From: Candidatus Daviesbacteria bacterium
Lineage (GTDB): Bacteria > Patescibacteriota > Microgenomatia > Daviesbacterales > UBA10151
Reading direction: 5' to 3'
Length of the DNA: 52,691 nucleotides
NCBI GenBank assembly: GCA_016183305.1
Contig: JACPEW010000003.1
Coordinates: forward strand, 1 to 52,691
Position numbers and translations under genes: made by a program
The notes under the pieces: generated by a model
Seen by the model: only the letters and a program-made list of their open reading frames with translations
Told to the model about the DNA's origin: nothing
Database searches by the model: none
Shown: positions 2,443-20,040 of the stretch, in pieces
Numbering within the stretch: position 1 is the stretch's first letter
Layout of the letters: every line of letters starts with the position of its first letter

Positions 2443-2508
2443 GGTTTTACCAAAACCTTACACAGTTCATATCCTGTTTTATTGAAATTGATGCATAGTG
2501 GCATTTAG

Positions 2509-3207: not shown

Positions 3208-3220
3208 TATTATTATAACT

Positions 3221-5310: not shown

Positions 5311-5323
5311 AATTTATATTCCA

Positions 5324-5348
5324 ACAAAAAAACCGCTCTAAGCGGTTT
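5324..5348 (-). terminator. intrinsic terminator-like hairpin in the typA 5' region
   Basis: Minus strand reads AAACCGC-TTAGA-GCGGTTT followed by a T-run. Confidence 0.6.
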
Positions 5349-5404
5349 CTTAGCAGGTGAACGTATTTTACCACTTTAAGCTCACAATAACAACTTCTCC
5401 CTTC

Positions 5405-5451
5405 TGTCATTCCGGGCGGTTAACTCGCTTCGCGAAGCGAGCGGGGAATCT
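5405..5451. repeat. GTCAT-type REP-like palindromic element, copy 1
   Basis: TGTCATTCCGGGCGGTTAACTCGCTTCGCGAAGCGAGCGGGGAATCT; shares GTCATyCyGrGCGGTTArCyCGCTTCGC with 51166-51206. Confidence 0.75.
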
Positions 5452-6133: not shown

Positions 6134-6159
6134 TAGGATTTAGTATATCAGTTCTCATC

Positions 6160-6222
6160 TGTCATTCCGAGTGAAACGGGGATCCCCGATGGAGAATACC
6201 ACTGGGACCGTTCAGGATGACA
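6160..6222. repeat. GTCAT-type REP-like element, copy 2
   Basis: TGTCATTCCGAG at 6160 and TTCAGGATGACA at 6211-6222 form imperfect terminal inverted repeats. Confidence 0.6.
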
Positions 6223-6273
6223 ACTGGGTGAAACTAGAGATTTTACAGGTAACTTGTTAGAATATACAACGAT

Positions 6274-6345
6274 GGGCCGCTAGCTCAATGGTAGAGCACT
6301 TCCCTCTTAAGGAATAGGTTCTCGGTCCGAATCCGAGGCGGCTCA
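6274..6345 (+). tRNA. tRNA-Lys (CTT)
   Basis: Acceptor GGGCCGC/GCGGCTC, D-arm GCTC/GAGC, anticodon loop CT-CTT-AA, T-arm CTCGG/CCGAG with loop TCCGAAT; CCA not encoded. Confidence 0.93.
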
Positions 6346-6508
6346 CAGACAAGTTTTTAGACTCAGTGTAGTCTTCGTTTAGCTTGAATAGACAAGCTAA
6401 TTTGGATGTTCCAGACTTTAAATCATCATAAGCCGGTAGTTTTTTAAAAATCAACCCAAACATAGCAGCGTTTTGATGGGGATCAGGGCTTCCTAGCAGT
6501 AAATCTTT
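6346..6508 (-). pseudogene. C-terminal remnant of a probable site-specific (large serine) recombinase
   Basis: KDLLLGSPDPHQNAAMFGLIFKKLPAYDDLKSGTSKLACLFKLNEDY resembles, from memory, the C-termini of CPR tRNA-adjacent recombinases; it reads toward the tRNA and has an upstream in-frame stop. Confidence 0.45.
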
Positions 6509-6560
6509 TCAGAAAGAAATCTCCTCTAAACAGCCAAAAAGTAATTATCAATATAGTTTT

Positions 6561-6698
6561 ATTTCTCCACAGGGTGCGGTCTTTGCTGCGACGGTTGCCG
6601 TAGCTGTTGTTGTTGTTGCCTGCCCTCATGCCTTGGGTCTGGCTATTCCCACAGTTACTACTATTACTTCTACTCTTGGGGCCAAAAATGGAATTTTA
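6561..6698 (+). pseudogene. fragment of heavy-metal P1B-type ATPase (CPH motif, CopB-like)
   Basis: Own translation: ISPQGAVFAATVAVAVVVVACPHALGLAIPTVTTITSTLGAKNGIL (CPH codons at 6621-6629); no DKTGT or other domains nearby. Confidence 0.88.
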
Positions 6699-6873
6699 AC
6701 AGTCTTCCGCGGGCTGAAAGCCCGCGGTTTTCTTTGAAAGTTTACAAGAAACTACAGAAAACCCTATCCAGACCTACCACCTGCCCCGCGGAAGACTGTA
6801 ATCACAAAAGCATTCATCCCCGCTTAACGCACCCAATTTGTTTTACAAATTGCAAGAAAGCGGGGTTTTCTGC
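6699..6873. mobile_element. non-autonomous IS200/IS605-like element (ends only, no ORF)
   Basis: Starts right after TTTTA and interrupts the ATPase fragment. Hairpin CCGCGGGC-TGAAA-GCCCGCGG (6707-6727), 15-bp inverted repeat 6699-6713/6785-6799, and right-end-like CATTCATCCCCGC...GCGGGGTTTTCTGCT (6811-6873). Confidence 0.6.
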
Positions 6874-6904
6874 TAGTGATTATAAAACAGAAATTAACAA
6901 AAGT

Positions 6905-7147
6905 TTAATAATTTGCTTCTGCATATTGGTGAGGATTTTTATCAAACCCGGCTTTACAATTTTCAGAGCAGAAACCATATTCCTTGCCCTTATAAGTGCT
7001 TTTAAATTCAAGTCTTTGAGGATTCAAGCTTTGCTTATATTTTGTCTTTTCCAAATTAACCTTTGTTCCACAAACCGGGTCTTTAACTTCGTTTATTTCT
7101 TCATCAACCTTTTTGGCAATATTCTGTACAATCTTGGGTAGCTTCAT
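6905..7147 (-). CDS. YHS-domain protein
   Basis: KDPVCG...YKGKEYGFCSENCK..FDKNPHQY; start placed at ATG 7147 behind GGAGGTGA (7153-7160). Confidence 0.88.
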   Translation of the reverse strand: MKLPKIVQNIAKKVDEEINEVKDPVCGTKVNLEKTKYKQSLNPQRLEFKSTYKGKEYGFCSENCKAGFDKNPHQYAEANY

Positions 7148-7167
7148 CAAAATCACCTCCTCCCAGG

Positions 7168-7833
7168 TTATAGTTTGTCGACCTCTCCTGCCAGTTCCTG
7201 ATTTCTTACAGCCATCTGGACATCATCTCTGGCAAATTTAATTATTCCCTCCTTATTAATTAAAACATAACTGTGTCCCGGAAACTGGCCTTTATGCATT
7301 GATGATGGAAGAGTTAAAACTCCGTATTGTTGGGAAACCTGTCTGTTGCTGTCAAAAAGTACTGTTGACCCTGCAAGCTCCGGCATCTTATCTATTGCCT
7401 GTTTCCAGTTGTTTTTGGGATCAACCGTAATGTTTAACACTACCGCTTTATTTTGCAGCTCGGTATCCTTACCGAAAGCAGCAATCTGATTCCAACAGGC
7501 CGGATAACACATTAGCCCCTCATTAAAAAAAAGTATGACATTTTTACCTTTTAGTCCGCTTAAAGTAATCTTTTTTCCATTATAACTTTCCAGAGTAAAA
7601 TCAGGTGCCGGTTTGCCAATTAGTCCGTTAAAAACAGCCGCATCAACAGAGACTCCTCCTCCATGATGATCTGCCATGGAGTTAACCTGTGCTGCTCCGG
7701 TTGCTTGTTGACCGGCAGAAACTTCATCTCCCTTGCTGTTTATGTTTATCTGTACATTAAAGTTGCTGACAAGCAATATCAAGGCTAGTACTACTCCGGT
7801 ACCTAAAATTGCAATCCATCCAGTTTTGTTCAT
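7168..7833 (-). CDS. membrane-anchored AhpC/TSA-like thioredoxin-fold protein with CxxxC (CYPAC)
   Basis: APDFTLESY..LSGLKGKNVILFF-NEGLMCYPACW; N-terminal TM; MADHHGG; start at ATG 7833 behind GGAGGTGA. Confidence 0.85.
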   Translation of the reverse strand: MNKTGWIAILGTGVVLALILLVSNFNVQININSKGDEVSAGQQATGAAQVNSMADHHGGGVSVDAAVFNGLIGKPAPDFTLESYNGKKITLSGLKGKNVILFFNEGLMCYPACWNQIAAFGKDTELQNKAVVLNITVDPKNNWKQAIDKMPELAGSTVLFDSNRQVSQQYGVLTLPSSMHKGQFPGHSYVLINKEGIIKFARDDVQMAVRNQELAGEVDKL

Positions 7834-7838
7834 TAAAA

Positions 7839-8705
7839 TCACCTCCTTTTCTTTAAATAGATAAGTTGTTTAACGGCAAAATAAACAATAGATAAAGCAA
7901 TACCAACAAAAATAACTGCCCAACCTATTTCAGGGATAATTTGGGTAAACTGGCTGATAGATTTAATAAATTTTGTAAGATAAATGTTGAGGGTAACCTG
8001 GTATGAATTATGGGAAGTGAGCTGACTGGTTCTTGCAAGATAAATAATAACAACTCCCAGTATTAGGAACATTAATCCCGAGAAGAGGTTAGCGAACGTA
8101 AGGCTAATTTTTTGGCCAAGCAAATTGTAAGAAATGCTTTTCCTGAAAGCAAAAAACTTCTTGGTAAAATCAACCTTGTCCAGGAAAAAGGCAATAAGAA
8201 AAAGAGGGAGAACCATTCCCAGTACATAAGCCAGAGTATAAACTCCTCCTAAGAAAACTGATCCGGGTAGTGCTGATAAAGTTAAAACTCCAGCCAGTAC
8301 CGGAGCACAGCAAGTTGTGGCAATGGCAGAAAATATACCTAAGACATAAACTGATATAAAATCTTGTCTTTTCAACTCGGGATGGATACTGAAAGGCAGA
8401 GAGAATTGTTGTCCCAAGAGCAAAGTCATGCCTAAGAATAATAAAAAGACTCCTCCAACAATAAAGATAGTGTCATGATACTGGCTAAAAATTTGAGTAA
8501 GGAATGAAACCCCAAGACCGATAGGGAGGAAGATAGATAAAATACCAAGGAAATAGATAAAAGTCATCAGAAATACCGTGGCTTTTTGCTTAAAGATGGA
8601 AGCAAAGTAGGTTGGCAAAAGCACAGTGATACAACAGGGTGCAAAAAGCGCTGCAATTCCTGCAAAAAATGAAGCTATAAATGATGCGCTAATTAAAAGG
8701 TCCAT
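7839..8705 (-). CDS. CcdA/DsbD-like transmembrane electron transporter
   Basis: SFFAGIAALFAPCCITVLLP, TTCCAPVLAGVL, YVLGMVLPL; about 7 TM segments. Confidence 0.88.
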   Translation of the reverse strand: MDLLISASFIASFFAGIAALFAPCCITVLLPTYFASIFKQKATVFLMTFIYFLGILSIFLPIGLGVSFLTQIFSQYHDTIFIVGGVFLLFLGMTLLLGQQFSLPFSIHPELKRQDFISVYVLGIFSAIATTCCAPVLAGVLTLSALPGSVFLGGVYTLAYVLGMVLPLFLIAFFLDKVDFTKKFFAFRKSISYNLLGQKISLTFANLFSGLMFLILGVVIIYLARTSQLTSHNSYQVTLNIYLTKFIKSISQFTQIIPEIGWAVIFVGIALSIVYFAVKQLIYLKKRR

Positions 8706-8708
8706 AAA

Positions 8709-9305
8709 TTAAAGTTTGTCTATTTCTGCAATTAACTCCTGATTTCTGACTGCCATTTGAACATCGTCTTTGGTGTACCGGACAAGTCCTTCTTTATCCA
8801 GAACTACATATGTATGCCCCGGAAGCTGTCCTTTATGCATTGATGAAGGGAGGGAAAGCATGTTGTAGGCTATGGAAACTTTTTTGTCTGTATCAAGAAG
8901 AACAGTGGCTCCCGCAAGTTCAGGCATTTTCTCAATAGCCCCTTTCCAATCATTTTTGGGATCATTAACAATTGTTAGCACTACAGCGTTCTTATCAGTA
9001 AACTCTTGGCCTTTCCCAAAAGCAGCAATTTGATCCCAGCAGGCAGGGTAACACATTAAACCCTCACTAAAAAAGAGGACAACATTTTTACCTTTAAGAC
9101 TGCTTAAAGTCATTTTATCCCCGTTATAGCTCTCCAAAGTAAAATCAGGCGCAGGTTTACCAATTAGATCATTAAGTGGTGTATTTGTAGCTTGACTCGT
9201 GGAAGAACCCTCATTACTGCTACCACTTAACAGAAAAACCGCCCCAACAAGCATGGCAACTGTAGCCAGAGCACCTATTGTAATAATGAGCTTATCTTTA
9301 CCCAT
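8709..9305 (-). CDS. second membrane-anchored CYPAC thioredoxin-fold protein (paralog of 7168-7833)
   Basis: IGKPAPDFTLESY, EGLMCYPACWDQ, SSMHKGQLPGH, DDVQMAVRNQEL nearly identical to the paralog. Confidence 0.85.
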   Translation of the reverse strand: MGKDKLIITIGALATVAMLVGAVFLLSGSSNEGSSTSQATNTPLNDLIGKPAPDFTLESYNGDKMTLSSLKGKNVVLFFSEGLMCYPACWDQIAAFGKGQEFTDKNAVVLTIVNDPKNDWKGAIEKMPELAGATVLLDTDKKVSIAYNMLSLPSSMHKGQLPGHTYVVLDKEGLVRYTKDDVQMAVRNQELIAEIDKL

Positions 9306-9436
9306 AAAAATTTTTAGTGATAGGACTTACCACTTTGTTTGGTATTATCCTTCAGAAACTTTAAAAACTGTCACGGCTATGAACACTACGCCGGAGAGAC
9401 CTAAACAAATCATCAGCAATTTACCGCCCGTCAGTT

Positions 9437-9910
9437 TTAGAGATCCCATTTAAATCTCCTTTCAGGAATGCCTCCGGCATTTTTAATATTTAACTCCAGC
9501 GATTTAGGCTTTGGTGAAATTGGATTAAACTTCAAAATACCCTGGCGGTGATGGCCTCCGGGAGGAGCACCTTCCCAGGATATGGGTTTATATGACTTTC
9601 CCTGACCATCTACAAGCTCAGATATAGCAACCAGGTCTTCATTGAGTTCTTCCGAATGAGTGTTTAATGTGATATCAAAATCCCAGACAGATAAACCCTT
9701 TTCTAAACCTTTTGGGGTAACAGCAACAGAAACAGGACCCCCGTTACTTTCTTTTGTTTCCAAATCACTTTTATTTTGGCTAGGGCTACCTTGAATCGCA
9801 ACGGGTGTATTTATATTCTTGGGACCTATATTGACAGAGAAACTATCCTTGAGCTTAACACCCAGGATTAAAAATAATATAGCAATAACGGCAACTGTAA
9901 TTTTTTTCAT
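9437..9910 (-). CDS. exported hypothetical protein with GGHH motif
   Basis: N-terminal hydrophobic segment; LNTHSEEL, WEGAPPGGHHRQGILKF. Confidence 0.75.
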   Translation of the reverse strand: MKKITVAVIAILFLILGVKLKDSFSVNIGPKNINTPVAIQGSPSQNKSDLETKESNGGPVSVAVTPKGLEKGLSVWDFDITLNTHSEELNEDLVAISELVDGQGKSYKPISWEGAPPGGHHRQGILKFNPISPKPKSLELNIKNAGGIPERRFKWDL

Positions 9911-10389
9911 TGCTTCACCGAAACTTTCAATACTTTATTGCGAAGCAAAAACTTTAGTTTATTTCCTATGTAAAATATTCCTAAAAGATTAAAAAATAAG
10001 CCGGTCCAAAAAAATTGAACCTGGTATTGACCAATAAAAGTAATAATTCCAGTTACCCCAAGGATAGGCAAGATGTTGGTGAGATAATGAGCGCAGCAGG
10101 AGATCATTGCACCTGTTGAGGTTGCACCGGTTGTAGCCAGAACTTGCCCAGTAGCTTGCTCTTTAATAACACCCTTAAGATAGCTATAGAGACTAAATTG
10201 TATTCCAAAGCCTAAAGCAAGACTCATGACGTAATACCAAAACTGGGTGAATTGTTCCCAGGTAAACTTCCACCCGGAAACAAGGGTTAGGGTGAGAAAA
10301 TATACAGATAAAAGAGTAAGGAAAGCCAAGCTTCCTTTTAACACTGATCTCTTCAAAATTCTTAGGTTTATGCTTAAATTACCCATCAT
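9907..10389 (-). CDS. multi-pass membrane protein with SCCAH motif
   Basis: Four hydrophobic segments; GAMISCCAHYL; likely start at ATG 10389. Confidence 0.75.
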   Translation of the reverse strand: MMGNLSINLRILKRSVLKGSLAFLTLLSVYFLTLTLVSGWKFTWEQFTQFWYYVMSLALGFGIQFSLYSYLKGVIKEQATGQVLATTGATSTGAMISCCAHYLTNILPILGVTGIITFIGQYQVQFFWTGLFFNLLGIFYIGNKLKFLLRNKVLKVSVKQ

Positions 10390-10404
10390 ATTAAGTCTAG
10401 CATA

Positions 10405-10431
10405 ATTGATACTACACATTGTAGTATCAAT
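10405..10431. promoter_or_regulatory. perfect palindrome, candidate BlaI-type operator
   Basis: ATTGATACTACA-CAT-TGTAGTATCAAT; contains TACTAC-N5-GTAGTA, 16 bp upstream of the 10389 start. Confidence 0.65.
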
Positions 10432-10442
10432 TTAGAAAACCA

Positions 10443-10853
10443 CTACCCCTGTCCTTTCCTAAAGATAAGCATAATTTCTTGAAGTTGCCGGTCAGTGTTC
10501 TTTCCGTTTACTACTTTCTTAACACATTCTTTAAGATGGACTGACAGAATTTCTTCATCAGCCAGCTTAAGATACCTTTGAACCACCCTAGACCGCTGGA
10601 TAATATCAAGACAATACTTTCCTCCTTCCGTCACCGTTAACACCTGTTGCAGGTGACGTAAGGCAATTGTTAATAACTTTAGGGCTTTTTTCTTGCAGCA
10701 ACTTTCATAGTAGCGGTAGAGCCAGAAGGCAATTCCATCAAGCAGTAGAAGAGGAATTAAAAATATTTTATTTGTACCTTCCTGTCTTAAGATTAAAAGA
10801 TAACCGGAAGAAATCAAAAGAAAAAACAAACCACCGCAACAAAGTAAATACAT
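10443..10853 (-). CDS. CsoR/RcnR-family metal-sensing repressor with hydrophobic N-terminal extension
   Basis: KYCLDIIQRSRVVQRYL...SVHLKECV gives the C-x-H-x3-C ligand set; N-terminal about 50 aa hydrophobic with two CC pairs. Confidence 0.75.
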   Translation of the reverse strand: MYLLCCGGLFFLLISSGYLLILRQEGTNKIFLIPLLLLDGIAFWLYRYYESCCKKKALKLLTIALRHLQQVLTVTEGGKYCLDIIQRSRVVQRYLKLADEEILSVHLKECVKKVVNGKNTDRQLQEIMLIFRKGQG

Positions 10854-10907
10854 TAGTACAAAAGGTATAACTGCACGGGAGGATTAATAACCCAAGTTTC
10901 TGAAGGA

Positions 10908-11153
10908 TCAACAATTTTTAACCTTTCTACTAGGACAGTTTTTTTCTCCTAATTCAATTTTTTTACTGAACTCAGCCGCAACCACCCTCAGAGGTTTACC
11001 TGTAGCTTTCTCAATTTGGGTAATTTCCTGGCTAGTATTTTTAATTCCTAAGTTTAGGTAAACATTAAAACCAATAAACAGTGTTACTAACACTACTAAA
11101 AATAAAGGTGTTTTTTTAAAAAAAGGAAGACATGGCAAGGGCATAGACCGCAA
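10908..11153 (-). other. possible gene fragment with one TM segment
   Basis: LFLVVLVTLFIGFNVYLNLG segment in another frame right after the ccdA2 stop; no good start. Confidence 0.25.
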
Positions 11154-11643
11154 AATTAATTACTCCTCCAAACATTCCCTTCTGGGCCAATGATTGAAAA
11201 ATCACCAACAAAAAAATTGGTAAAGTACACCCTATCGCCCCAAAAGCGTAAACTATGCCAAAGAGATAAAACCTTCTTCCGCCATTTGTCTTAGTTTGGA
11301 TAACAACAGGCGGTCTGGTAGCGAATTCATAGCCAAATAGCGTTGATGATCCCATAAATAAAAGTAGCCTTCCAGTGGCAAGCTCTATCCAGGGAAAAAT
11401 AGGAGCAATAAGGCGCCCAAAAAGGGCCAAAATGATGCCGGAGACAACGTAAACACTAATAAGGCCTAAACCGGCGAAGCTGCCGGCTTTAAGGCCAAAA
11501 AGAATTTGTTGTATTTTATTGTTATCTCCCGTTTCCTGTTTAACATAATAGCCGGCATACGCCGGAATTAATGCAATACTGCATGGAGCAAAGAATGCCT
11601 GCAGGCCTGCCAGGAACGGGAAGGACACCAAAACTAGATCCAT
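11116..11643 (-). pseudogene. second CcdA-like protein, truncated
   Basis: FLAGLQAFFAPCSIALIPAY, AIGCTLPIFL, FAVYALAMS, then stop inside a T7A7 tract (11111-11124); the usual final TM segments are missing. Confidence 0.7.
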
Positions 11644-11854
11644 ACCGCCATCCTTTCCTTAAAAGTAATACCAGTGAAACAAATAAGACCAAGTATAGCA
11701 GTCCGTCTAAGACCGATCCACCGAATGTTATTATTGCTGGCAGAAGTGTGTGCAAAGCATCAAGTAGTAGACGAAAACCCCAAACCATCAAGATAGCAGC
11801 TAAATAGTATTTAGGGTTCTCATACCAAATATATTTTTTAACTCTCTTCCCCAT
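11540..11854 (-). CDS. small membrane protein (3' end overlaps ccdA2)
   Basis: Two hydrophobic segments in the first 65 aa; C-terminal 35 aa overlap the ccdA2 start and are doubtful. Confidence 0.5.
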   Translation of the reverse strand: MGKRVKKYIWYENPKYYLAAILMVWGFRLLLDALHTLLPAIITFGGSVLDGLLYLVLFVSLVLLLRKGWRYGSSFGVLPVPGRPAGILCSMQYCINSGVCRLLC

Positions 11855-11857
11855 ATT

Positions 11858-12442
11858 TTACAAAGGTGCTTTTTCAGGACCGCGGTTTTCATTTGTTTCC
11901 ATGAAAGTTTTGATTTGACTTTCGTCAATTGTTTGGAGTTTAAGTAATCTGCCCCATGAAGTTAAAGCAATTGGCACATCAAGGCTGTCCCTTGGAACCA
12001 TAATTTTTTTACTAACTGAAACAGATCCAAAAATTTGTTTTAACCTGTCAATATCTTGCTCAGATAAAACATTTATCTTTGCTGATTCCGTTCCTTCTGT
12101 TAGTTGATTATCTGTGCCACCGGATGGTTTGTACCAAAGTATAACGGCTCCGTGTTCCATGCTGTGTATCAGATTCCCGTCCTGGACAGGTTTATCATAG
12201 ATACCGGCAGGCTGGGAATTAGCATAATGGGGACCTGATGTTGGCGGATTTGTACTATACTCTTCTTTTGTACCTTCCGGTACATGGTTTGCACCCTGAC
12301 TGGCAATAGCCTCTCCTATTAAGGGTTGGCTTAATTTTGCCTGATCCTTGGCGCCTTGAATACTCAGAAACCAGATACCACCGCCAAGAAGAATAACGGC
12401 GGCTATTATAACTCCTATAATAACTTTAGTTTCTGTCGTCAT
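11858..12442 (-). CDS. DUF3105 domain protein
   Basis: HVPEG..YSTNPPTSGPHY, LIHSMEHGAVILWY, IALTSWGRLL; N-terminal TM. Confidence 0.88.
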   Translation of the reverse strand: MTTETKVIIGVIIAAVILLGGGIWFLSIQGAKDQAKLSQPLIGEAIASQGANHVPEGTKEEYSTNPPTSGPHYANSQPAGIYDKPVQDGNLIHSMEHGAVILWYKPSGGTDNQLTEGTESAKINVLSEQDIDRLKQIFGSVSVSKKIMVPRDSLDVPIALTSWGRLLKLQTIDESQIKTFMETNENRGPEKAPL

Positions 12443-12449
12443 ACATTTC

Positions 12450-12797
12450 TCACTTTTTGGTAATAGTAATATTAATATTAAAAAGTTTGCTCAAAAAGTT
12501 GTCAGAATTCATCCTCCACATTAAGAATTGATTAAATATGAATGCTCCAATAATTACGATTAGAAGGATCACGCTTAACTTTTTCATTAAAGCTTGCGGG
12601 CCGGTATCTTTAGGAAGTGTCTGAAATTGTATTTGCGTAGTAGGTACTTGTTCCGGAATTTTAAGCTTAGATATCTCTTCTTCCGATATTAAAATACCTT
12701 GCAGAGAATGACGGAAAAGGAAGTAAATTATGCCTCCAATGATCAGGATGCCACCTAAAAACAGAAAAAAATCAGTGTAATCGGTTAAATTAATCAT
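12450..12797 (-). CDS. hypothetical membrane protein (2 TM)
   Basis: Co-directional ORF filling the gap; two hydrophobic segments. Confidence 0.65.
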   Translation of the reverse strand: MINLTDYTDFFLFLGGILIIGGIIYFLFRHSLQGILISEEEISKLKIPEQVPTTQIQFQTLPKDTGPQALMKKLSVILLIVIIGAFIFNQFLMWRMNSDNFLSKLFNINITITKK

Positions 12798-12799
12798 TT

Positions 12800-14077
12800 T
12801 TAAAGCCCGTGTCTTCCATCAGAACCTGCACCACCATGTGACTCATGTGGGAGGGCGCTGTCGTTCCCGGTCGCTAACAGATAATCTTCCAGCATGCCTT
12901 TGGGATACCACAGGGCATACCAGAGGTGCGATTCACCAACAAGTTGTTCATCCGAATATCTACCGCCGTAATTTGCAATCATAAAGCGGTAATAGCCTCT
13001 AACCGCCTTTGCATGAGCACATCCGCAGTTTTTATTCATCGTGACATTATTTGGTCCGCCACAACAATAGCTACAAGTCATCATAGTAGAGATCAGCTTT
13101 TGATATCTTGCTTCCTGTTCCGTTGATAATTTAATGGAGATTTCAAACGCTCCCCATTTCTTTTGGGCATTGATGGGATCATCAAAAGCAACATCATCAG
13201 GAGCATAAAAAGGTTTACCGGTTGCAATCATTACCACCTTGGCATCAGCAAGCGCGTTTCCGGAATTTGGGTTAGCAGGAACTTGCGTGATTGTAGGCCA
13301 CTCAAACAACGAGGTGGTTTTCCCATCAGGATTTATTTTGGGAGCAATGATGGTATAGGTAGATTTGGTTTGTATACCTAGTAGCTTTGCTACAAATCCT
13401 TTATTTGAAGTCATCCCCATTGCAGCGGCAATCTGAGACATCAAAAGTTGGTTCACAAGGAAAAGTCCTGCCAAAGAAAAAACAAGAATATTTTGTAGCG
13501 GTAAAATGAAAAACCTTTTTTGTGCTTCTTGTTTTACATCAAGGCTTTTAAAATTGTGTGATATATCGTTACATTCTTTGCAATGAATAGCTGCTTTAAC
13601 TTTGCTAATACCATAGAGCAAGGATCCTGTTAAAAGGCCTAAACTCAAAAATTTAAGTTCTAAACCCTGTAAGGGGAATACCGATAACCCACCTGCCACG
13701 CCAATTACTGATAACAAAAATGCTCCACAAACAGGACAACCCATACTAAATGCAGCTGTTATTAAGCCCCCAAAATTGGCACCAATGTTCCTGGTTTGAC
13801 TTAACCTGGAGTGACGATAAAGCCAAAAAGCGGTGGCCACACTAATACCAGATAAAGCAATTATCAAAACAGTTGTAACTATAAAAGCTATGCCATATAA
13901 CGTACTGTATGTACCAAAATCACCATTCTTTATGTTATCTAAGAAACTTTGAATGGTTGTAGTTTTATAAAACAACCAATAAGAAAGATAGGAAAATGCT
14001 AAAGTTGTGTAGAAGGCTGCATACCTGTAAAAAGATTCCCTAAAAATGATTTTTAGTGGTGTCAATATTGTATTCAT
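12800..14077 (-). CDS. membrane protein with CPVC and CKEC motifs and a C-terminal Cys-rich (CSYCC...CGCAH) domain
   Basis: FSMGCPVCGAFL, HCKEC, MMTCSYCCGG...NCGCAHAKAVRG; five N-terminal TM segments. Confidence 0.8.
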   Translation of the reverse strand: MNTILTPLKIIFRESFYRYAAFYTTLAFSYLSYWLFYKTTTIQSFLDNIKNGDFGTYSTLYGIAFIVTTVLIIALSGISVATAFWLYRHSRLSQTRNIGANFGGLITAAFSMGCPVCGAFLLSVIGVAGGLSVFPLQGLELKFLSLGLLTGSLLYGISKVKAAIHCKECNDISHNFKSLDVKQEAQKRFFILPLQNILVFSLAGLFLVNQLLMSQIAAAMGMTSNKGFVAKLLGIQTKSTYTIIAPKINPDGKTTSLFEWPTITQVPANPNSGNALADAKVVMIATGKPFYAPDDVAFDDPINAQKKWGAFEISIKLSTEQEARYQKLISTMMTCSYCCGGPNNVTMNKNCGCAHAKAVRGYYRFMIANYGGRYSDEQLVGESHLWYALWYPKGMLEDYLLATGNDSALPHESHGGAGSDGRHGL

Positions 14078-14079
14078 GA

Positions 14080-15288
14080 TTATTGTTGCGCTCCGCTTGG
14101 CGTAGCTGACTGAACCTTACCTACTATCTGATCAGTTGTTAAATCCTTATAAACGGCACCTCTTAGTTGCTGCATTTCCCTAAACACATACCAGCCGTCT
14201 GTTTCCACTGTCCCCACATTTTTCCAAACATTTTTTAAGTCCGTGTACTGATCTGATCCGGGTGACGCAAGAATAGTAGGAACCTTGGTAATCTTATACT
14301 TGCTAATCAAACCCTGCCCTTCACCTGAAGATACATCAACAGTCCGTTCAGACCTGATACCTACACCATATCCTTGTTTGAGAATAGGTTTTTGAACTGT
14401 ATCTGCTTTATAACATTCACTACAACTAGAGTCGGTTAAATAGATTAAATCAACTAAACCTAAGATTTGATTCTTCTCTAAGTCTCTATACGGCAGGAAC
14501 AGATTACGCGCCACATAAGTTTTGTCCTGTTCAACTGTACCAATGTTTGCCCAACTGGATTTAATATTGTCATAGAAATCTATATCAGATGAAAGCATAA
14601 AAGTTGGCAGCTTGGTAATTTTGTACTGATTGATAATTCTTTGTCCTTCAAAGGAGTTCCAGGTGATTTCTTTTTGATCCACAATTTTTATTCCGGATTT
14701 TTTAAAGCTTTCTATCGTTAACTTGGGACCGGTGCACTCCGTACAAGATGGATCAGTTAAGATAGTTGCAATTACCTTACCCACTTCTTGTTTACTGTCA
14801 GTATCAATAAAAACAGGAGTAACTTTGGTAAAGACAAAATTATTATTTTTAATCTCACCATTATTCTTAATAAAGTCCTCCAGGTTACTCTTAGTTACTT
14901 CTCCTGAAACAATGTAGGATGGAACTTTTTTAATAGCAAACTCTTTGATGGAGGCGCTGGCTTCCGGCGAATCAAAATTTAATGTTCTTTCCTCTTCTAC
15001 CTTGACATTCTGCTTTTTAAAGCCGTTGACAGCAGCATCAATGTTAAAACAGTCCTGACAGCCAGGGACAGAAATCTTAACAATCTTGACATTAGCTGGC
15101 CGGGCTGCTTCTTTTGCAGCAGCAATATTTTTATTGACGGCAACAAGGGTTTTAGTAGAAACAAGCGCTCCTATAACTGTGGTGGCAAGTGTGACAATCA
15201 AAATTATCTTTGGCCATGTAATATTTAGCTCCTTTTTCTTGCTATTTAACCCCGGGCCGATACTAGATACGGCATCTTTCCTGTTCAT
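14080..15288 (-). CDS. membrane-anchored protein with three thioredoxin-like CxxC repeats
   Basis: CQDC, CTEC, CSEC, each followed by S.EG..LI.KY.I.K[LV]P; N-terminal TM. Confidence 0.82.
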   Translation of the reverse strand: MNRKDAVSSIGPGLNSKKKELNITWPKIILIVTLATTVIGALVSTKTLVAVNKNIAAAKEAARPANVKIVKISVPGCQDCFNIDAAVNGFKKQNVKVEEERTLNFDSPEASASIKEFAIKKVPSYIVSGEVTKSNLEDFIKNNGEIKNNNFVFTKVTPVFIDTDSKQEVGKVIATILTDPSCTECTGPKLTIESFKKSGIKIVDQKEITWNSFEGQRIINQYKITKLPTFMLSSDIDFYDNIKSSWANIGTVEQDKTYVARNLFLPYRDLEKNQILGLVDLIYLTDSSCSECYKADTVQKPILKQGYGVGIRSERTVDVSSGEGQGLISKYKITKVPTILASPGSDQYTDLKNVWKNVGTVETDGWYVFREMQQLRGAVYKDLTTDQIVGKVQSATPSGAQQ

Positions 15289-15342
15289 AATTTCGTCAGA
15301 AATTTCAAGCTTGCTTATAATATTTAGACAGTTTGTGCATCA

Positions 15343-15618
15343 CTAGCATCCTCCAACCATTGATTGTGGCACGTCCGCATTGCTTCCTGTGCCAACTCCA
15401 CCGCTTGTAGTAGCAGGAGCAACTTTTACTGGAGTAGCGCTGGCTTTAGAACTGATACGTACTAATTGAAACGTTTGGAAAAGAGTAATTACAGCTATGA
15501 GCCCAAGCACCACAATTTGTAAGTTAGGTTTGGGAACACGCAATACTACGGTATTATTGTTTTCTTGACTCGGAGAATGACGTGTTGTATTTGTTTCTAC
15601 CCGTTGATTTTCTGTCAT
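15343..15618 (-). CDS. small single-TM protein ending in MVGGC
   Basis: AGGAGGTG RBS upstream; one TM; terminal SMVGGC. Confidence 0.75.
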   Translation of the reverse strand: MTENQRVETNTTRHSPSQENNNTVVLRVPKPNLQIVVLGLIAVITLFQTFQLVRISSKASATPVKVAPATTSGGVGTGSNADVPQSMVGGC

Positions 15619-15640
15619 AAAGCACCTCCTTCCGTAATAG

Positions 15641-15680
15641 ACTACGACTTATTGTAGTAGAATAATTTTAGCTTTGTCAA
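15641..15680 (-). promoter_or_regulatory. sigma70-like promoter overlapped by a candidate BlaI operator
   Basis: TTGACA (15680-15675)-N18-TACAAT (15656-15651); TACGAC-TTATT-GTAGTA at 15643-15659 covers the -10. Confidence 0.65.
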
Positions 15681-15695
15681 TGAGGAAGGGATCAA

Positions 15696-16793
15696 CTAGT
15701 GGCTAAAAAGAGGCGCTTGGTATTCAGAAACCTGTGCAGTAAATAGGGTTTGATTCCCCGGAAACTTAGAGTCCAATAAAGACTTATCTACATCATTTGA
15801 ATGGTTATCGCATTTCCTTTCTGGTAAGAATAGATGTGCCGGGATATAGTTCGAAGACTTTCCGGTATCAGTATGACATTGCTGCGGACAGGATTGTTCT
15901 GCAGAACAGAGAAAATAAGCGGAGTTATCCATTGAATCCGCATGAAAAGCATTAACTGGTGTTTGGAGCAAAAACCAACTTACGAGAACAAATAAAAAAG
16001 TTGTAAGTAAGCTAACAATTGATAGTCTAAACTTACATTTTGTTCCTGGATTTATCAGGCGGTGAATTCTTATTTCAAAATAATCAGGGCCGGAAACGTT
16101 GGAGGCTGTTGCCAAATCTAAATCTGGTGCGGCTAAAATTTTTTTGAGTGCGCTGCGGAGAAAAGTTGATTTTTGTTGATGGCTTATTGTCCATTGATCT
16201 GCTAAAAGTTCATTAACAGCCTCTATATTTTTGCGGAGATCCGCAAAAAGAGGCAAGAAGAAAAACATCGAAGAAAAAGTTTTGCCGGTAAGTACTTTAA
16301 TTGGATCCCGGTTGATTAGGTGGGATTGTTCATGAAGTAAAACTGCTTCTAATTCTTTCATTGTCAGAGATTTTATAAGACCTGTGCTTATCACAATGAA
16401 AGGAGAAAAAATACCACAGCAAAAAGAGAACAAATTTTTATCTCTGACTAAGATTACCTTATTTATAAGACTTAAGCTTTCTAAAGTTTTTGTTAGATCC
16501 GGGGGTATCGAAGTTTTATTTACCAGCAACCTTCCTAATAAAATGTGAGTTTTAACAAGTTGTACCAAAAACGAGAGAAGACCTATCCCCAGAACAGCTC
16601 CAATAATAAGAATAAGCGACTGGGGAAGCGAACGTGGAATTTCAAACATAATATTAGAAATAAATTTTTGGCAAAGAAAGAGTGTTTTGGAAGTAAATAA
16701 CGGTGAGGCTTTGTATAAAAGAGCGCTTATAACTAAACTGACAGTTAATGCAGAAAAAACCAGAGCATAAAAACTAATATTAATTCTCCTCAT
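15696..16793 (-). CDS. BlaR1/MecR1-like M56 membrane metallopeptidase
   Basis: IVISTGLIKSL..ELEAVLLHEQSHLINRDP, ELLADQWT, RIHRL; no penicillin-binding sensor domain; Cys-rich C-tail. Confidence 0.9.
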   Translation of the reverse strand: MRRINISFYALVFSALTVSLVISALLYKASPLFTSKTLFLCQKFISNIMFEIPRSLPQSLILIIGAVLGIGLLSFLVQLVKTHILLGRLLVNKTSIPPDLTKTLESLSLINKVILVRDKNLFSFCCGIFSPFIVISTGLIKSLTMKELEAVLLHEQSHLINRDPIKVLTGKTFSSMFFFLPLFADLRKNIEAVNELLADQWTISHQQKSTFLRSALKKILAAPDLDLATASNVSGPDYFEIRIHRLINPGTKCKFRLSIVSLLTTFLFVLVSWFLLQTPVNAFHADSMDNSAYFLCSAEQSCPQQCHTDTGKSSNYIPAHLFLPERKCDNHSNDVDKSLLDSKFPGNQTLFTAQVSEYQAPLFSH

Positions 16794-16819
16794 AATCAGA
16801 CAATACGGTAATTTCTTTC

Positions 16820-17206
16820 TTAATCTTCACCTAAAATTTTTAATAGCTCTTGTCGTTTCTTTGGGCTGATTTTTTGAATTTCTTTTATAAAATGAGCCAG
16901 TACCTCTTCTCCTAAAGTAGAAACTGCTGATGAAAAAATGCCATGAACAGCTCTTGCTACAAATTGTTCTTTAGAGACTTTAGGTTTATATAGATAACTT
17001 GGCCCACTCATGTGTCTTACCAGGACACCCTTATTTACAAGCCTTGCCATAATAGTCATGACAGTTGTATAGGCAACCTGGCGTCTTTTGTTTAAAACTT
17101 CAGTCACACTTTTAACCGAAACTGCACCCTTTTGACCCCAGATAATTTCCATTACCTCGGATTCCAGATCACCCAAAACTTTACCGGTAACCCGTTTCTT
17201 GTTCAT
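16820..17206 (-). CDS. BlaI/MecI/CopY-family transcriptional repressor
   Basis: LGDLESEVMEIIW, VAYTTVMTIMARLVNKGVL, YLYKP. Confidence 0.93.
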   Translation of the reverse strand: MNKKRVTGKVLGDLESEVMEIIWGQKGAVSVKSVTEVLNKRRQVAYTTVMTIMARLVNKGVLVRHMSGPSYLYKPKVSKEQFVARAVHGIFSSAVSTLGEEVLAHFIKEIQKISPKKRQELLKILGED

Positions 17207-17213
17207 CTTCCCG

Positions 17214-17237
17214 ATTATACTACAATAGTTAGTAGTA
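17214..17237 (-). promoter_or_regulatory. blaI-like promoter -10 with adjacent candidate operator
   Basis: TATAAT at 17219-17214; palindrome TACTAC-AATAGTTA-GTAGTA at 17218-17237. Confidence 0.6.
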
Positions 17238-17250
17238 GATAAATAAGCGA

Positions 17251-17650
17251 ATGAAGAAAAAACTACTTTTCATCTGTTTAGGCTTAATTTCTATAGCAGT
17301 AATACTTTATTGGTTAAAGGTCCCACATCTTCTTATTGGCCGGTATCTTGCCCCTTCAGATAATTTATCCCGGGCTGATGCAATAGTAGTTGTTAGTGGG
17401 GATAGTGACCGGATGAGACAAGCGATAGATTTATATAAGCAAGGTTACGCTCCAAAACTAATCCTCCCGGGTGCTGCAGGAGATGGGATAACCTCGAAAT
17501 CATCAAAGGAGAGTATATGAAACTTTTAAAAATGTGTTTAAGGAATCAGGGGTTAAATTACAAAATAGCCCCTCAATTTATTCTGGTTGGAAGCCTGATA
17601 ACTGGTGGGATAGAGAAAGAGAGCTACATCTTACCCAGGAGAAACCATAA
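17251..17650 (+). pseudogene. YdcF/DUF218-family protein with internal out-of-frame deletion
   Basis: ADAIVVVSGDSDRMRQAIDLYKQGYAPKLILPGA in the first frame; HQRRVYETFKNVF...WKPDNWW resumes in a shifted frame from 17501. Confidence 0.75.
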
Positions 17651-18327
17651 AAGTTTTGTGGTCCGGTATCTGCTAACCCCTGGTGCAGACTGATTGGAAT
17701 TGTAATGTATTTTAAATAATTGATTGGTGATACATCTTCAAGATTAGAACTTGAAGGTCCTGGAGTACCCCTTCCACCATAGAAAGCAGCATTATCAGAA
17801 GACCTTCCGCTGGTTGGTACCCAAAGAACCGGAACTTTTACTCTCCAATTTTATTTTGATCAGCTTTAGGTAAACTTTTTAGTGAGGCAATCAAATTTAA
17901 TATATCTATAGCATAATTGGGGTTGTGTCCCCGTGATCCTAGGCCGTCATTTTCCGGTTTCCCAAAACCCCGGTAGTCCGAGGCCAAAGTAAGATAACCG
18001 TTACCTGAAATATAAGTGGACTGGTTAAAATAGCCGTGGTTTAAAAAAATTACCGGAAGGGTAGGAAAAGAGATAGCTGGTGTATGAATTATTACTTGAT
18101 ATGGTTCCTCCTATTTTAATTCCTCCTCCTTTAATTTTTCTTTTACGCAAATTTTCAATGAATGATTCAACACCGTTCTCAGCAGTACTCCTTATGTTTT
18201 GATTTACCTCCGGATTATTTTGTGCCGAAGGTAGCTTTTTGAAAATATTGATTTGCCACAATCCTAGCCCTACTAGAACTAGTATTGTAAAAATTAGTAA
18301 AACTTTAATAGGCCATGTCTGCATCAT
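17650..18327 (-). pseudogene. S9/prolyl-oligopeptidase-like alpha/beta hydrolase, multiply deleted
   Basis: Pieces in three frames: FIENLRK...YLFSYPSG; LNHGYF...GYLTLASDYRGFG...YAIDILNLIASL...KIG; VSPINYLKYITIPISLHQGLAD. The GxSxG nucleophile is missing. Confidence 0.7.
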
Positions 18328-18358
18328 AAGTTATCATCCCAGTGTAATTCCCAAGAGA

Positions 18359-18796
18359 TTATCTTGGAGATCCGCCTGAGTTACCACCTGGATGGCTTCC
18401 TCTAAATCCTTGAGGATTGAGTTGGATGTTTTGAGCAGTGACTGACCCATCAGAGTTATTACTGCCCAATACCATCACTTGTTTTCCAACAGCCAAGGAT
18501 TCCTTTGCAGCTGAGGTTGCCTCTGTAATAGCTGTGTTGTCTGACAATAGAACAATTTTACTTGATCCATCCGAAAGTTTTACAGTAATAATTTTATCAT
18601 CAGAGCCTATGATTTCTCCATTAACTGGCCTGAATCCTTGAGTCCCCTGCGCAAAATTACCCATTCTTGCACCTTGAAAATTAGCAAAACGGCCTGTTGG
18701 GCTTTTTGACTGCTGGTATTTCATGCCTGCAAAAAATCCTCCTGCACCAACTACCAAAGCAACTGCAACAATGATTGCTATTATATTATTCTTCAT
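18359..18796 (-). CDS. exported DUF5666-like protein of the ABC exporter operon
   Basis: GGFFAGMKYQ, GEIIGSDDKIITVKLSDGSSKIV; start at ATG 18796 behind GGGGGTGA. Confidence 0.7.
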   Translation of the reverse strand: MKNNIIAIIVAVALVVGAGGFFAGMKYQQSKSPTGRFANFQGARMGNFAQGTQGFRPVNGEIIGSDDKIITVKLSDGSSKIVLLSDNTAITEATSAAKESLAVGKQVMVLGSNNSDGSVTAQNIQLNPQGFRGSHPGGNSGGSPR

Positions 18797-18816
18797 CAAA
18801 TTCACCCCCTCTCAAA

Positions 18817-20040
18817 TTATTCATATCTTAATGCTTCAATTGGTGCTAAGTTGGAGGCTCTTTGTGCAGGATACCAGCCAAAAAGTATTCCAATTCCGCT
18901 TGATACTCCAATTGCTAAAATAATTGACGAAGGAGATATTACAAAAGGCGAGCTGGTCAAGCCGGAAATAATATATGAAGCTATTACTCCAAAACCTATA
19001 CCTATGATTCCGCCTACAAAAGTTAAAATGACTGACTCAATCAAGAATTGAGTTATGATTAATCTCTTCTTAGCCCCCAGTGCTTTTCTAAGACCTATTT
19101 CTCTGGTTCTCTCTGTAACTGTAACAAGCATTATATTCATAATTCCTATTCCTCCTACCAAAAGTGAAATGGCTGCTATGCCGGATAGAAGGGATGTAAA
19201 GGTGCTGGTAGTGGCAGAAGCGGTGTTTAAAATATCCTGTTGTGAAAATATAGAAAAATCAGCCTGGGAAGGATCGTTTAACTTATGTCTTGCCAAAAGT
19301 AAATAACCCACTTGCGTTTGGGCATCAACCATCACCTCAGGACTTTTTGCTTCAAGGGCAATTGATGAAAGGTAATCTGCTCCAAAGAGCTGCTTTTGAG
19401 CTGTAGATAAAGGAACGAAAATAGTATCATCCTGATTAAAAAAGCCTGATCCTCCTTTTGAGGCAGTTATACCAATAATGGCGAGAGATTGACCATTTAT
19501 TCGAACGGTTTGTCCTATTGGGTTTACACCCTCACCGAAGAGATTAGTAACGACATTTGGTCCTAAAACAGCTACCTTGGCCATACTATTTACTTGTTGC
19601 TCATTAATAAAATTTCCTGAGTCAAGAGAGATTTTCCTGACAATCTCATAGGTTGGAGTTATACCTATTATCTGGGTATTAGTATTTGCTTTGCCTGTTG
19701 TTACCTGGGTTCTTCTGGAAAACTCCGGTGATACGTTTTGGATGGTAGTTACCTGGGAAGATGTCTTAATTGCCTTTGCATCCTCTAAAGTTAAATTTGT
19801 TCCTTCGCCAGCTGCCCCACGGACTCCACGAGTTGAAACTGCTCCTGGTTGGATAGTTAGGAGGTTTGCACCCAATGATTGAATTTGTGACTGGATAGCC
19901 TGAGAAGTAGATTGTCCCAAAGATATCAGAGCAATAACGCTGCCAATTCCTATAACAATACCTAATGTTGCTAGTCCTGTTCTTAATTTATTAACAGTTA
20001 ATGTGCCAATTGCTTCAGTTATTATTTCTGTGTATTCCAT
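18817..20040 (-). CDS. MacB/FtsX-family ABC transporter permease
   Basis: LATLGIVIGIGSV, LLVGGIGIMNIMLVTVTERTREIGLRKALGA, FGWYPAQRAS.L.PIEALRYE. Confidence 0.95.
   Translation of the reverse strand: MEYTEIITEAIGTLTVNKLRTGLATLGIVIGIGSVIALISLGQSTSQAIQSQIQSLGANLLTIQPGAVSTRGVRGAAGEGTNLTLEDAKAIKTSSQVTTIQNVSPEFSRRTQVTTGKANTNTQIIGITPTYEIVRKISLDSGNFINEQQVNSMAKVAVLGPNVVTNLFGEGVNPIGQTVRINGQSLAIIGITASKGGSGFFNQDDTIFVPLSTAQKQLFGADYLSSIALEAKSPEVMVDAQTQVGYLLLARHKLNDPSQADFSIFSQQDILNTASATTSTFTSLLSGIAAISLLVGGIGIMNIMLVTVTERTREIGLRKALGAKKRLIITQFLIESVILTFVGGIIGIGFGVIASYIISGLTSSPFVISPSSIILAIGVSSGIGILFGWYPAQRASNLAPIEALRYE

Follow-up and report, generated by a model that had tools for sequence, protein, structure and literature searches.

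What does a BlaI repressor control when the M56-family membrane protease beside it carries no penicillin-binding domain? The question is raised by contig JACPEW010000003.1 of a Candidatus Daviesbacteria genome (assembly GCA_016183305.1; 940 kb, 36% G+C, 28 contigs), the whole of which, 52,691 nucleotides (contig C1), is referred to here as the window. A blaI gene and an M56 gene, on the same strand and 26 nt apart, head a cluster whose genes all lie on the minus strand between positions 7168 and 17237, and no beta-lactamase gene was found within the window. The initial annotation, which placed a BlaI/BlaR1-type switch over copper and thiol-redox genes at 10405-17237, delimited a real cluster but drew its left limit too short, since genes continue to 7168. 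We consider it probable, short of confident, that this is an accessory cluster run by a non-beta-lactam BlaI/M56 pair of the PetR/PetP or CenIR kind and exchanged horizontally among bacteria of the candidate phyla radiation (CPR), in which a metal or thiol signal is received through the M56 cysteines, BlaI is cleaved and the cluster is derepressed.

The three TAC/GTA sites from which that proposal started were all found where they had been placed. One of them, O1, lies in the middle of the cluster and had been called a perfect 12-bp palindrome; its core (10410-10426, TACTACACATTGTAGTA) is indeed perfect, but its arms are 10 bp each. O2 reads TACGACTTATTGTAGTA, and O3 reads TACTACAATAGTTAGTAGTA, within which 17221-17237 is one of two overlapping registers. 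The pattern TACNAN-N5-GTAGTA has five strand-matches in the window, all at these three sites, against 0.03 expected from shuffled sequence. Across the genome, TACTAC-N5-GTAGTA has one exact match (0.11 expected) and four with one mismatch (3.8 expected), three of the five falling in the cluster; the operator is statistically real and local. Operator-like sites elsewhere (C3:17228, C25:22839 and C9:16932) occur at the chance rate and were left out of the regulon.

Each of the three sites overlaps a core promoter, and the earlier claim that two of them sit on or abut -10 boxes holds. O2 covers the -10 element of the region's best sigma-70-like promoter, which precedes p91 on the minus strand with 11 of 12 consensus matches (TTGACA at 15680-15675, an 18-nt spacer and TACAAT at 15656-15651). 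O3 overlaps by 2 bp a minus-strand TATAAT (17219-17214) and also includes a plus-strand TACAAT (17221-17226). The minus-strand box ends only 7 nt from the blaI start codon, which would make the blaI transcript leaderless or almost so.

To ask whether these sites are shared, 11 orthologous clusters were gathered, with M56 proteins 47-81% identical to that of the window: three from Daviesbacteria (L013, L016, L072), two from WWE3 (L014, L015), and six from other Patescibacteria and metagenome contigs (L017, L066, L068, L070, L071, L073). Gene order is preserved across them. The initial annotation had tied its proposal to conservation of the motif upstream of such clusters, and there it is kept, at the same positions: 35 sites with at most one mismatch occur over the 11 loci (228 kb), against about one expected at the genome-wide rate. 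A site stands directly upstream of blaI in 10 of the 11 loci; in the eleventh, L014, a perfect site heads the preceding gene of the blaI operon and the blaI-proximal site has decayed. The p91-type gene is preceded by an operator wherever the p91 operon exists, and in L073, which lacks p91, the triple-thioredoxin gene and p425, the site instead precedes the gene after M56. The same is true of p170 wherever its module exists, with a 17-mer identical in five loci.

Alignment of the M56/p91 spacer from nine loci resolves the O2 promoter like a footprint. TTGACAA is invariant and the 17-18 nt that follow vary freely; then come an invariant CTACTACA(C/A)T..GTAGTA, GAAAGGAGGTG (the ribosome-binding site) and the ATG. 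In L070, a mer-like insertion has come between M56 and the p91 operon, and the operator still adjoins the latter. Further modules found in other loci carry operator copies of their own (a secreted 229-aa protein, an ICMT/PEMT-like membrane protein, a glutaredoxin-like gene and a BNR protein), so the regulon appears modular and operator-defined. L071 has a further operator about 117 nt upstream of the csoR start.

The blaI promoters of the relatives are built somewhat differently from that of the window. In L013, L016, L017, L066, L068 and L070, the operator itself is the blaI -10 element (TACAAT), placed 18 nt after TTGACT, and in most orthologs (these same loci) the blaI ATG lies 7-13 nt past this operator-borne box; blaI transcripts are probably leaderless or nearly so in CPR orthologs. 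In the window, the central spacers of O1 (CAT versus ATG, in gene sense) and of O3 (AATAGTTA versus TAACTATT) are inverted relative to all orthologous loci, with the arms unchanged, which may reflect inversion within the palindrome. As a consequence of the O3 inversion, TACAAT ends up on the strand of the divergent DUF218 pseudogene and TATAAT is left for blaI.

Which protein binds the operator is suggested by the company it keeps. The motif always accompanies blaI, including at the promoter of blaI itself, and it persists in loci that have neither a CsoR gene nor a two-component system (L014-L016, L066). The blaI product matches PF03965 over residues 11-125 with 104 bits (cut-off 22.6). Its solved relatives are 2G9W, 1P6R, 1SD4 and 1OKR, the closest being Mycobacterium tuberculosis BlaI (2G9W, E=5e-12), whose recognition helix reads AYTTVMA where the protein here has AYTTVMT. 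The M. tuberculosis operator is reportedly TAC[GT]AC-N5-GT[AC]GTA, which has the same geometry. More distant blaI genes are accompanied by this dyad or by one of the TACA/TGTA type: ACTACA-ATC-TGTAGT (L030, Microgenomates) and TTTACA-N5-TGTAAA (L035, DPANN). The operator is therefore predicted, from sequence, to belong to BlaI and to be autoregulated as in BlaI, MecI and CopY systems. A CopY/TcrY assignment for the repressor was rejected: it scores 67.8 bits (E=1e-18) on TIGR02698 against a cut-off of 121.95, and CxCx4CxC is absent. Since the protein contains neither that motif nor any cysteine, metal sensing in the manner of CopY is impossible for it.

Another regulator could bind the palindromes instead, the CsoR-like protein or a two-component regulator being candidates, or they could be structural or recombination sites. 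A CsoR-like protein is encoded in the cluster, some relatives have a response regulator, and two window operators have central spacers inverted relative to the orthologs. We nonetheless judge this very improbable: the motif survives in the loci lacking both candidate regulators, its place on the -10 element and at the blaI promoter is that of an autoregulated BlaI/MecI/CopY operator, the dyad is of the TAC...GTA type of that family, and no Rfam family matches the region. CsoR operators are generally described as GC-rich.

Having considered the repressor, we turn to the protease. Its only Pfam matches are to Peptidase_M56 and Peptidase_M48; it has no PF00905 match and reaches 27 bits on the NCBIfam BlaR1 models (cut-offs 400-1200), in agreement with the first description of it as lacking a penicillin-binding domain. 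The catalytic residues H154, E155 and H158 (HEQSH, 154-158) and E195 are invariant in 55 homologs. Clear transmembrane helices, by hydropathy and in the AlphaFold2 model, span residues 8-26, 59-77 and 257-275, and the positively charged N-terminus is inside, which places the loop 27-58, with Cys41, outside like the tail. The family profile aligns to residues 105-337 of Staphylococcus aureus BlaR1 (8EXS), that is, to its third transmembrane helix, protease domain and fourth transmembrane helix, and the M56 protein ends 88 residues past its last helix. This alignment indicates that an 88-residue tail stands in place of the extracellular sensor domain.

The cysteine-rich character of this tail, also part of the earlier description, was confirmed in C296, C302, C306, H307 and C328. 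C296-x5-C302-x3-C306 is invariant in the 55 homologs and Cys41 is nearly so, while the surrounding tail sequence drifts, and this retention of cysteines amid divergence argues for function. A family search over 1.8 billion representatives returned 5,016 relatives; about half of 145 further representatives (P0121-P0265), reaching as low as about 27% identity, have C-x5-6-C-x3-C close behind the last helix.

The tail could, of course, sense nothing. BlaI would then repress the cluster in response to a cytoplasmic or cell-wall cue, as has been proposed for sensor-less mycobacterial BlaR, or merely set a constant expression level, and the metal genes described below would be passengers of a genomic island. 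Sensor-less BlaR proteins with no assigned signal are common, CenIR was induced by no condition tried, the tail is disordered in the model (residues 283-365, with predicted local distance difference test scores of about 35), and the recombinases at L068 and L072 together with the phyletic pattern mark an accessory element. One relative, L071, has a beta-lactamase-like neighbour, yet its operator lies at the blaI -10 element, about 285 bp from that gene, and the window has no beta-lactamase. Given the (near) invariance of the three tail cysteines and Cys41 over 55 homologs while the remaining tail diverges, we hold a non-sensing tail to be improbable.

A sensory role for the M56 cysteines is what we favour, and the genes under the operators indicate what might be sensed. 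Apart from BlaI, every cluster product has an N-terminal anchor or multiple transmembrane helices by hydropathy, so they are envelope proteins. Those with recognisable functions are concerned with extracytoplasmic thiol-disulfide chemistry (thioredoxin-like, CcdA/DsbD and Redoxin-fold proteins, the last with CYPAC); the remainder, p91, p425, p170 and p157, are family-less and rich in Cys, His or Met. The triple-thioredoxin protein has orthologs 64-91% identical in all close clusters, and a homolog adjoins blaI-M56 in a Nanoarchaeota locus. CcdA has APCC and TTCCAP motifs and is 83-85% identical to its WWE3 orthologs. The CYPAC proteins contain CxxxC and a downstream His and match AhpC-TSA (E=3e-18); for the one encoded at 7168-7842, the best solved relatives are Bcp-type peroxiredoxin-like proteins and ResA.

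Among the family-less proteins, p425 has GCPVCG in a transmembrane helix and CSYCCG...CGCAH...HxxHGG outside. It has no Pfam match, no sequence relative in the PDB and no Foldseek match to the PDB at E<=0.001 (AlphaFold2 model, pLDDT 67), and its 255 homologs are all unnamed. Among 41 related genomes, exactly 4 have an M56 ortholog together with a full-length p425; the others have neither. A p170 homolog lies near blaI-M56 in a DPANN locus. For p170 and the p425 N-terminus, a MerT, MerF or MerC identity was rejected, no Pfam match appearing even at E<=10, and the DUF3105 protein has no solved relative in the PDB. The CsoR-like protein has a DUF156 domain with KYC...H-LKE-C, an x-C-H-C ligand set of the copper(I)-sensing type, and may bind copper. 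Its N-terminal membrane helix, which carries a CC pair (MYLLCCGGLFF...), is unusual for a family of cytosolic repressors.

The orthologous loci add a link to soft metals. CsoR genes stand at the end of the window operon and also occur in L013, L071 and L073; a multicopper oxidase is the last operon gene in L066 and L072; and CsoR, cupredoxin and CopA genes, with a CopC/cupredoxin protein, flank L070. A core MerA (GGTCVNIGCVPSK ... SCCV-COOH; CVNIGC and a C-terminal CC) is present as an insertion in L070 and as the last gene of the second module in L071, and ArsR-type regulators with P-type ATPases, or DUF2933, are found in L068 and L073. In all, genes for copper, mercury or heavy metals lie within or beside the operon in at least 8 of the 12 loci. 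On this basis, we give a thiophilic metal, copper first, an even chance of being the signal, and thiol oxidation a distinctly smaller one, with something else accounting for the remainder.

Thiol oxidation deserves separate consideration, because it would use the same switch and regulon. In that case envelope disulfide stress would be the signal: the M56 cysteines would be kept reduced by the CcdA/redoxin pathway, and formation of a disulfide would activate the protease, closing a homeostatic loop. Most of the regulon genes that can be assigned to families encode oxidoreductases (three thioredoxin-like domains, two DsbD_TM and two Redoxin-fold), and distant BlaI/M56 pairs in other phyla (L018, L020, L023, L027) adjoin DsbD and redoxin genes. 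In comparisons limited to BLAST against the proteins of the window, the distant loci showed no metal gene except a CsoR-like open reading frame in L024, and the core clusters L014-L017 showed none; the flanks of the latter were covered in part, by open-reading-frame listing. We nevertheless regard this reading as unlikely, given that at least 8 of the 12 orthologous loci contain metal genes, some of them preceded by an operator of their own, and given a three-cysteine motif with nearby His or Met of the sort typical for soft-metal sites. Since what copper does to the envelope is itself damage to thiols, the metal and thiol signals may not be separable.

Several observations weigh against a metal- or thiol-sensing M56 switch in this organism. 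We infer the copper and soft-metal link from gene neighbourhood, and the window's own cluster contains no copper pump or oxidase. Elsewhere in the genome, no operator was found at a canonical CsoR, DsbD-like, cupredoxin, CopA and CopZ-like locus (C15:6275-13123) or at a MerA-like gene (C16:16700-18094). A Sco1/SenC identity for the CYPAC proteins was rejected (PF02630, E=0.2, 12 bits against a cut-off of 22.8). H307, the His after the third tail Cys, is not conserved family-wide; the tail is predicted to be disordered, so no binding site can be modelled; and the outside cysteines could simply form a structural disulfide. The decay of several cluster genes, described below, means that the system may be only partly functional here. 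Finally, in L071, where the M56 is 65% identical, a class A beta-lactamase-like gene (PF13354, 8352-9284) is divergent from blaI in the classical bla arrangement. A beta-lactam reading was rejected: the only nearby operator in L071 is the one at the blaI -10 element, and the window encodes no beta-lactamase.

Taken together with what is known of BlaI-type systems, these data suggest how a metal- or thiol-responsive BlaI/M56 switch might work. At rest, BlaI dimers would occupy the TACTAC-N5-GTAGTA operators over the -10 or start region of three promoters: that of blaI and the M56 gene, autoregulated and near-leaderless; that of an operon comprising p91, the triple-thioredoxin gene, p425, p115, DUF3105 and the DsbD-like and CsoR-like genes; and that of a module of p170, p157, a redoxin-like gene, CcdA and a second redoxin-like gene. 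The M56 catalytic domain would be cytoplasmic, its short, disordered outside tail (C-x5-C-x3-C) replacing the penicillin sensor and acting with the outer-loop Cys41. A thiophilic metal, Cu(I) and possibly Hg or Ag, would be bound by these thiols, or the thiols would be oxidised. Activated M56 would then cut the BlaI dimerisation helix at H104-F105, derepressing all modules. This pair (LAH-F) aligns in HMMER with the S. aureus cleavage pair N101-F102 (LN-F), and F105 is invariant in orthologs, the Asn being replaced by His as in M. tuberculosis BlaI; removal of BlaI by proteolysis is thus proposed by analogy. The induced thiol-reducing and Cys/His-rich envelope proteins would buffer or repair the damage and may restore the resting state of the sensor. 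Of the earlier claim that some 12 envelope redox genes answer to a BlaI/M56 switch, the conserved operator at three envelope thiol-redox promoters and the missing beta-lactamase speak in favour; its metal or disulfide signal and its BlaI proteolysis we infer.

A more specific version of this scheme can be offered as a tentative and rather doubtful proposal. Cys41 and the tail C-x5-C-x3-C would together make a minimal receptor, responsive to soft metals or to thiol oxidation, and gate the cytoplasmic protease directly; the output would be an undescribed extracytoplasmic cysteine relay, made up of the p91 MVGGC-COOH arm, the triple-thioredoxin protein, p425 (CPxC/CxxCC...CxCxH) and DUF3105, fed by CcdA and also resetting the sensor, with the cassette exchanged between CPR lineages and related versions in DPANN. 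If true, it would give the BlaR-type proteins outside beta-lactam sensing their first defined sensing element. Several relatives encode an ICMT/PEMT-family membrane protein that is preceded by an operator of its own (L013:19456-20106). In eukaryotes this family methylates C-terminal cysteines, and CzcN of metal-resistance operons belongs to it; a link between the p91 SMVGGC-COOH terminus and this protein is purely speculative.

How new is such a system? The initial annotation had called it undescribed, a claim that does not survive the literature: non-beta-lactam BlaI/M56 pairs have been published, including PetR/PetP, which is copper-dependent, and CenIR, and further atypical cases comprise mycobacterial BlaIR and a Pseudomonas pair. 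About 94% of some 15,000 M56 proteins lack a penicillin-binding domain (about 6% have one), and 96% lie near a BlaI (PMC13492132). In Synechocystis sp. PCC 6803, PetR (Slr0240) is degraded in a manner dependent on copper and on PetP (Slr0241) (bioRxiv 10.1101/2020.07.31.226407). As here, the gene for a BlaI/CopY-family regulator precedes that for an M48/M56 protease which has no beta-lactam sensor, contains HExxH and carries its protease domain between transmembrane helices. The operators, GAC-N5-GTC in PetRP and TAC-N5-GTA inside TACTAC-N5-GTAGTA here, are both dyads with a 5-bp centre. By its description PetP lacks a C-terminal periplasmic domain, whereas the M56 protein has a tail of 85-90 residues with an invariant C-x5-C-x3-C. 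The PetR regulon consists of petE, petJ and a few others, and PetR acts as an activator too; in the present cluster the targets are envelope thiol-redox and Cys-rich genes, none encoding plastocyanin or cytochrome c6, and the operator positions point to repression only. Copper dependence was shown for PetRP and is suggested here by neighbourhood.

S. aureus BlaI/BlaR1 and MecI/MecR1 share with this cluster an adjacent, autoregulated Penicillinase_R repressor and M56 protease, a palindromic promoter operator and the Zn site of HExxH plus Glu; a Phe here aligns with the P1' residue of the N101-F102 site. In contrast to BlaR1/MecR1, there is here no transpeptidase sensor domain and no beta-lactamase or PBP2a target; the half-site is TACTAC around an N5 centre rather than TACA-N2-TGTA, and three promoters serve about 13 targets. 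The M. tuberculosis pair BlaI/BlaR (Rv1846c/Rv1845c) resembles the present one in a BlaR without a sensor domain and a multi-locus regulon reaching beyond beta-lactamase, but that regulon comprises blaC and ATP synthase genes, responds to beta-lactams and is not linked to thiol-redox or metal genes. We know of no cysteine-motif tail in M. tuberculosis BlaR.

Clostridioides difficile CenI/CenR is likewise a BlaIR pair without a beta-lactam-binding domain, controlling about 12 envelope genes, and the CenR tail, like that of M56, is short, largely unstructured and the presumed sensor (PMC13492132). The CenR tail is, however, unrelated and has no Cys motif, its regulon concerns the cell wall (Cwp6, Ldt1, CDR_0474), and its host cannot do without CenIR, in contrast to the accessory, patchily distributed cluster described here. 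CopY/TcrY of Firmicutes belong to the same winged-helix family and have a TACA...TGTA-type operator and a link to copper genes; CopY senses Cu(I)/Zn(II) itself through a C-terminal CxCx4CxC with no protease, whereas the BlaI here is Cys-free and paired with M56.

Against this background, what is new is a subfamily in which a defined, invariant Cys motif occupies the place of the sensor, the sequence reveals both operator and regulon, and the targets, largely family-less, are common to CPR and DPANN. Our literature search found no paper on BlaI/M56 in CPR and nothing on DUF3105 and copper. The signals of nearly all sensor-less BlaR-like proteases are unassigned; PetP alone has a named signal, and its sensing site is undefined. 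In the CPR subfamily, three or four Cys make up a candidate sensor that is short, invariant and open to mutation, the operator is readable and the regulon is compact, so that what sensor-less BlaR proteins sense becomes testable in a heterologous host, the organism being uncultured. It also gives a regulatory context to widespread CPR and DPANN envelope proteins without known family or fold (p425, p170, p91, DUF3105), which may show how minimal, respiration-poor cells shield surface thiols from copper-like metals.

The distribution of the cluster bears on its origin. Its proteins are 65-85% identical between the Daviesbacteria genome and WWE3 genomes, while identity in the housekeeping TypA/BipA is only about 40% along most of the protein and reaches 70% within the GTPase domain. 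Of 19 genomes of the genus, 4 have the cluster, and in two relatives the M56 match is broken by stop codons. A serine recombinase lies directly upstream of blaI in L068 (8183-9502), and L072 has a serine recombinase, a MerR/excisionase-like helix-turn-helix gene and a DnaG-type primase (1164-7430) within 9 kb upstream of blaI, indicating that the cluster can ride on integrative elements. To judge by these comparisons, it is an accessory cassette exchanged horizontally. Synteny extends to DPANN archaea, a comparison that the initial annotation had suggested; there, L035, L043 and L044 have a short blaI-M56 pair beside homologs of p425, the triple-thioredoxin protein and p170; in Chloroflexota and other phyla, BlaI/M56 is paired with DsbD and redoxin genes.

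Comparison with L013 indicates that the cluster in the window is a reduced derivative of that layout. The DsbD-like gene (11116-11643) has lost the last 52 residues of its 225-aa orthologs (the L013 tblastn match covers 1-173 of 225), and the thioredoxin remnant (10908-11153) has lost the thioredoxin domain, which in orthologs gives faint Thioredoxin_4 and Thioredoxin_2 matches; as far as tblastn shows, these are deletions rather than sequencing-type frameshifts. The CsoR-like gene is a chimera of two L013 paralogs, its N-terminus resembling CsoR118 and its C-terminus CsoR87, which points to a deletion between the paralogs that removed a two-component system and the ICMT/PEMT-like gene. The window also lacks the gene for the 229-aa secreted protein found ahead of blaI in L013 and L014, and at 17251-18327 both DUF218 and p325 (a 325-aa neighbour split over three frames) are pseudogenes.

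Table 1. Features of the blaI-M56 cluster and its operators in the window, in gene order from blaI.
Feature	Position	Strand	Basis
blaI, BlaI/MecI/CopY-family winged-helix repressor, 128 aa, without Cys	16820..17206	-	PF03965 E=6.4e-30
M56 membrane metalloprotease without penicillin-binding domain, 365 aa	15696..16793	-	PF05569 E=2.5e-10, PF01435 E=6.4e-9
p91, single-pass membrane protein, invariant C-terminal SMVGGC	15343..15618	-	no Pfam/NCBIfam match
Membrane-anchored protein with three thioredoxin-like CxxC domains (CQDC, CTEC, CSEC)	14080..15288	-	weak Thioredoxin_3/_2/_8 matches
p425, polytopic membrane protein, outer Cys/His-rich domain	12800..14077	-	no Pfam or PDB match
p115, membrane protein with two transmembrane helices, no assigned function	12450..12797	-	hydropathy, synteny
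Membrane-anchored DUF3105 protein, HSMEHG motif	11858..12442	-	PF11303 E=1.1e-28
DsbD/CcdA-like membrane protein, truncated	11116..11643	-	PF02683 weak, E=0.0033
81-aa remnant of 175-aa thioredoxin-like protein	10908..11153	-	tblastn, residues 14-82 of 175 only
CsoR-family protein, Y-C...H-x3-C copper(I)-type signature, N-terminal membrane helix	10443..10853	-	PF02583 E=1.7e-8; RicR E=2.6e-4
p170, membrane protein, invariant SCCAHY; first gene after O1	9907..10389	-	alignment
p157, anchored beta-rich protein, conserved GGHHR	9437..9910	-	DUF5643 E=0.0012, below cut-off
Anchored AhpC/TSA-Redoxin-fold protein, CYPAC (CxxxC)	8709..9305	-	PF00578 E=3.3e-18
CcdA/DsbD-type transmembrane thiol-disulfide transporter	7839..8705	-	PF02683 E=4.1e-10
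Second anchored AhpC/TSA-Redoxin-fold protein, CYPAC and SMADHHGGG; last cluster gene	7168..7842	-	PF00578 E=3.6e-18
Operator O3, TACTAC-N8-GTAGTA, two overlapping N5 registers, between blaI and divergent DUF218 pseudogene	17218..17237	.	blaI -10 overlap
Operator O2, on -10 of p91 operon promoter	15643..15659	.	footprint alignment of 9 loci
Operator O1, perfect palindrome TGATACTACA-CAT-TGTAGTATCA, upstream of p170	10407..10429	.	core TACTACACATTGTAGTA identical in 5 orthologous loci
DUF218 pseudogene (internal deletion and frameshift), divergent from blaI, sharing O3	17251..17693	+	tblastn, residues 1-84 in frame 1 and 137-184 in frame 2 of a 197-aa ortholog

An Rfam scan of positions 5000-19000 returned a tRNA only, with no RNA family at the operator region, and no sensible att-type direct repeat (at least 13 nt) of the tRNA-Lys region was found at the opposite end of the cluster. 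On its left, the cluster is flanked by TypA/BipA and tRNA-Lys(CTT) (6274-6346), about 820 bp from the cluster end, and on its right by an ABC/HlyD export system.

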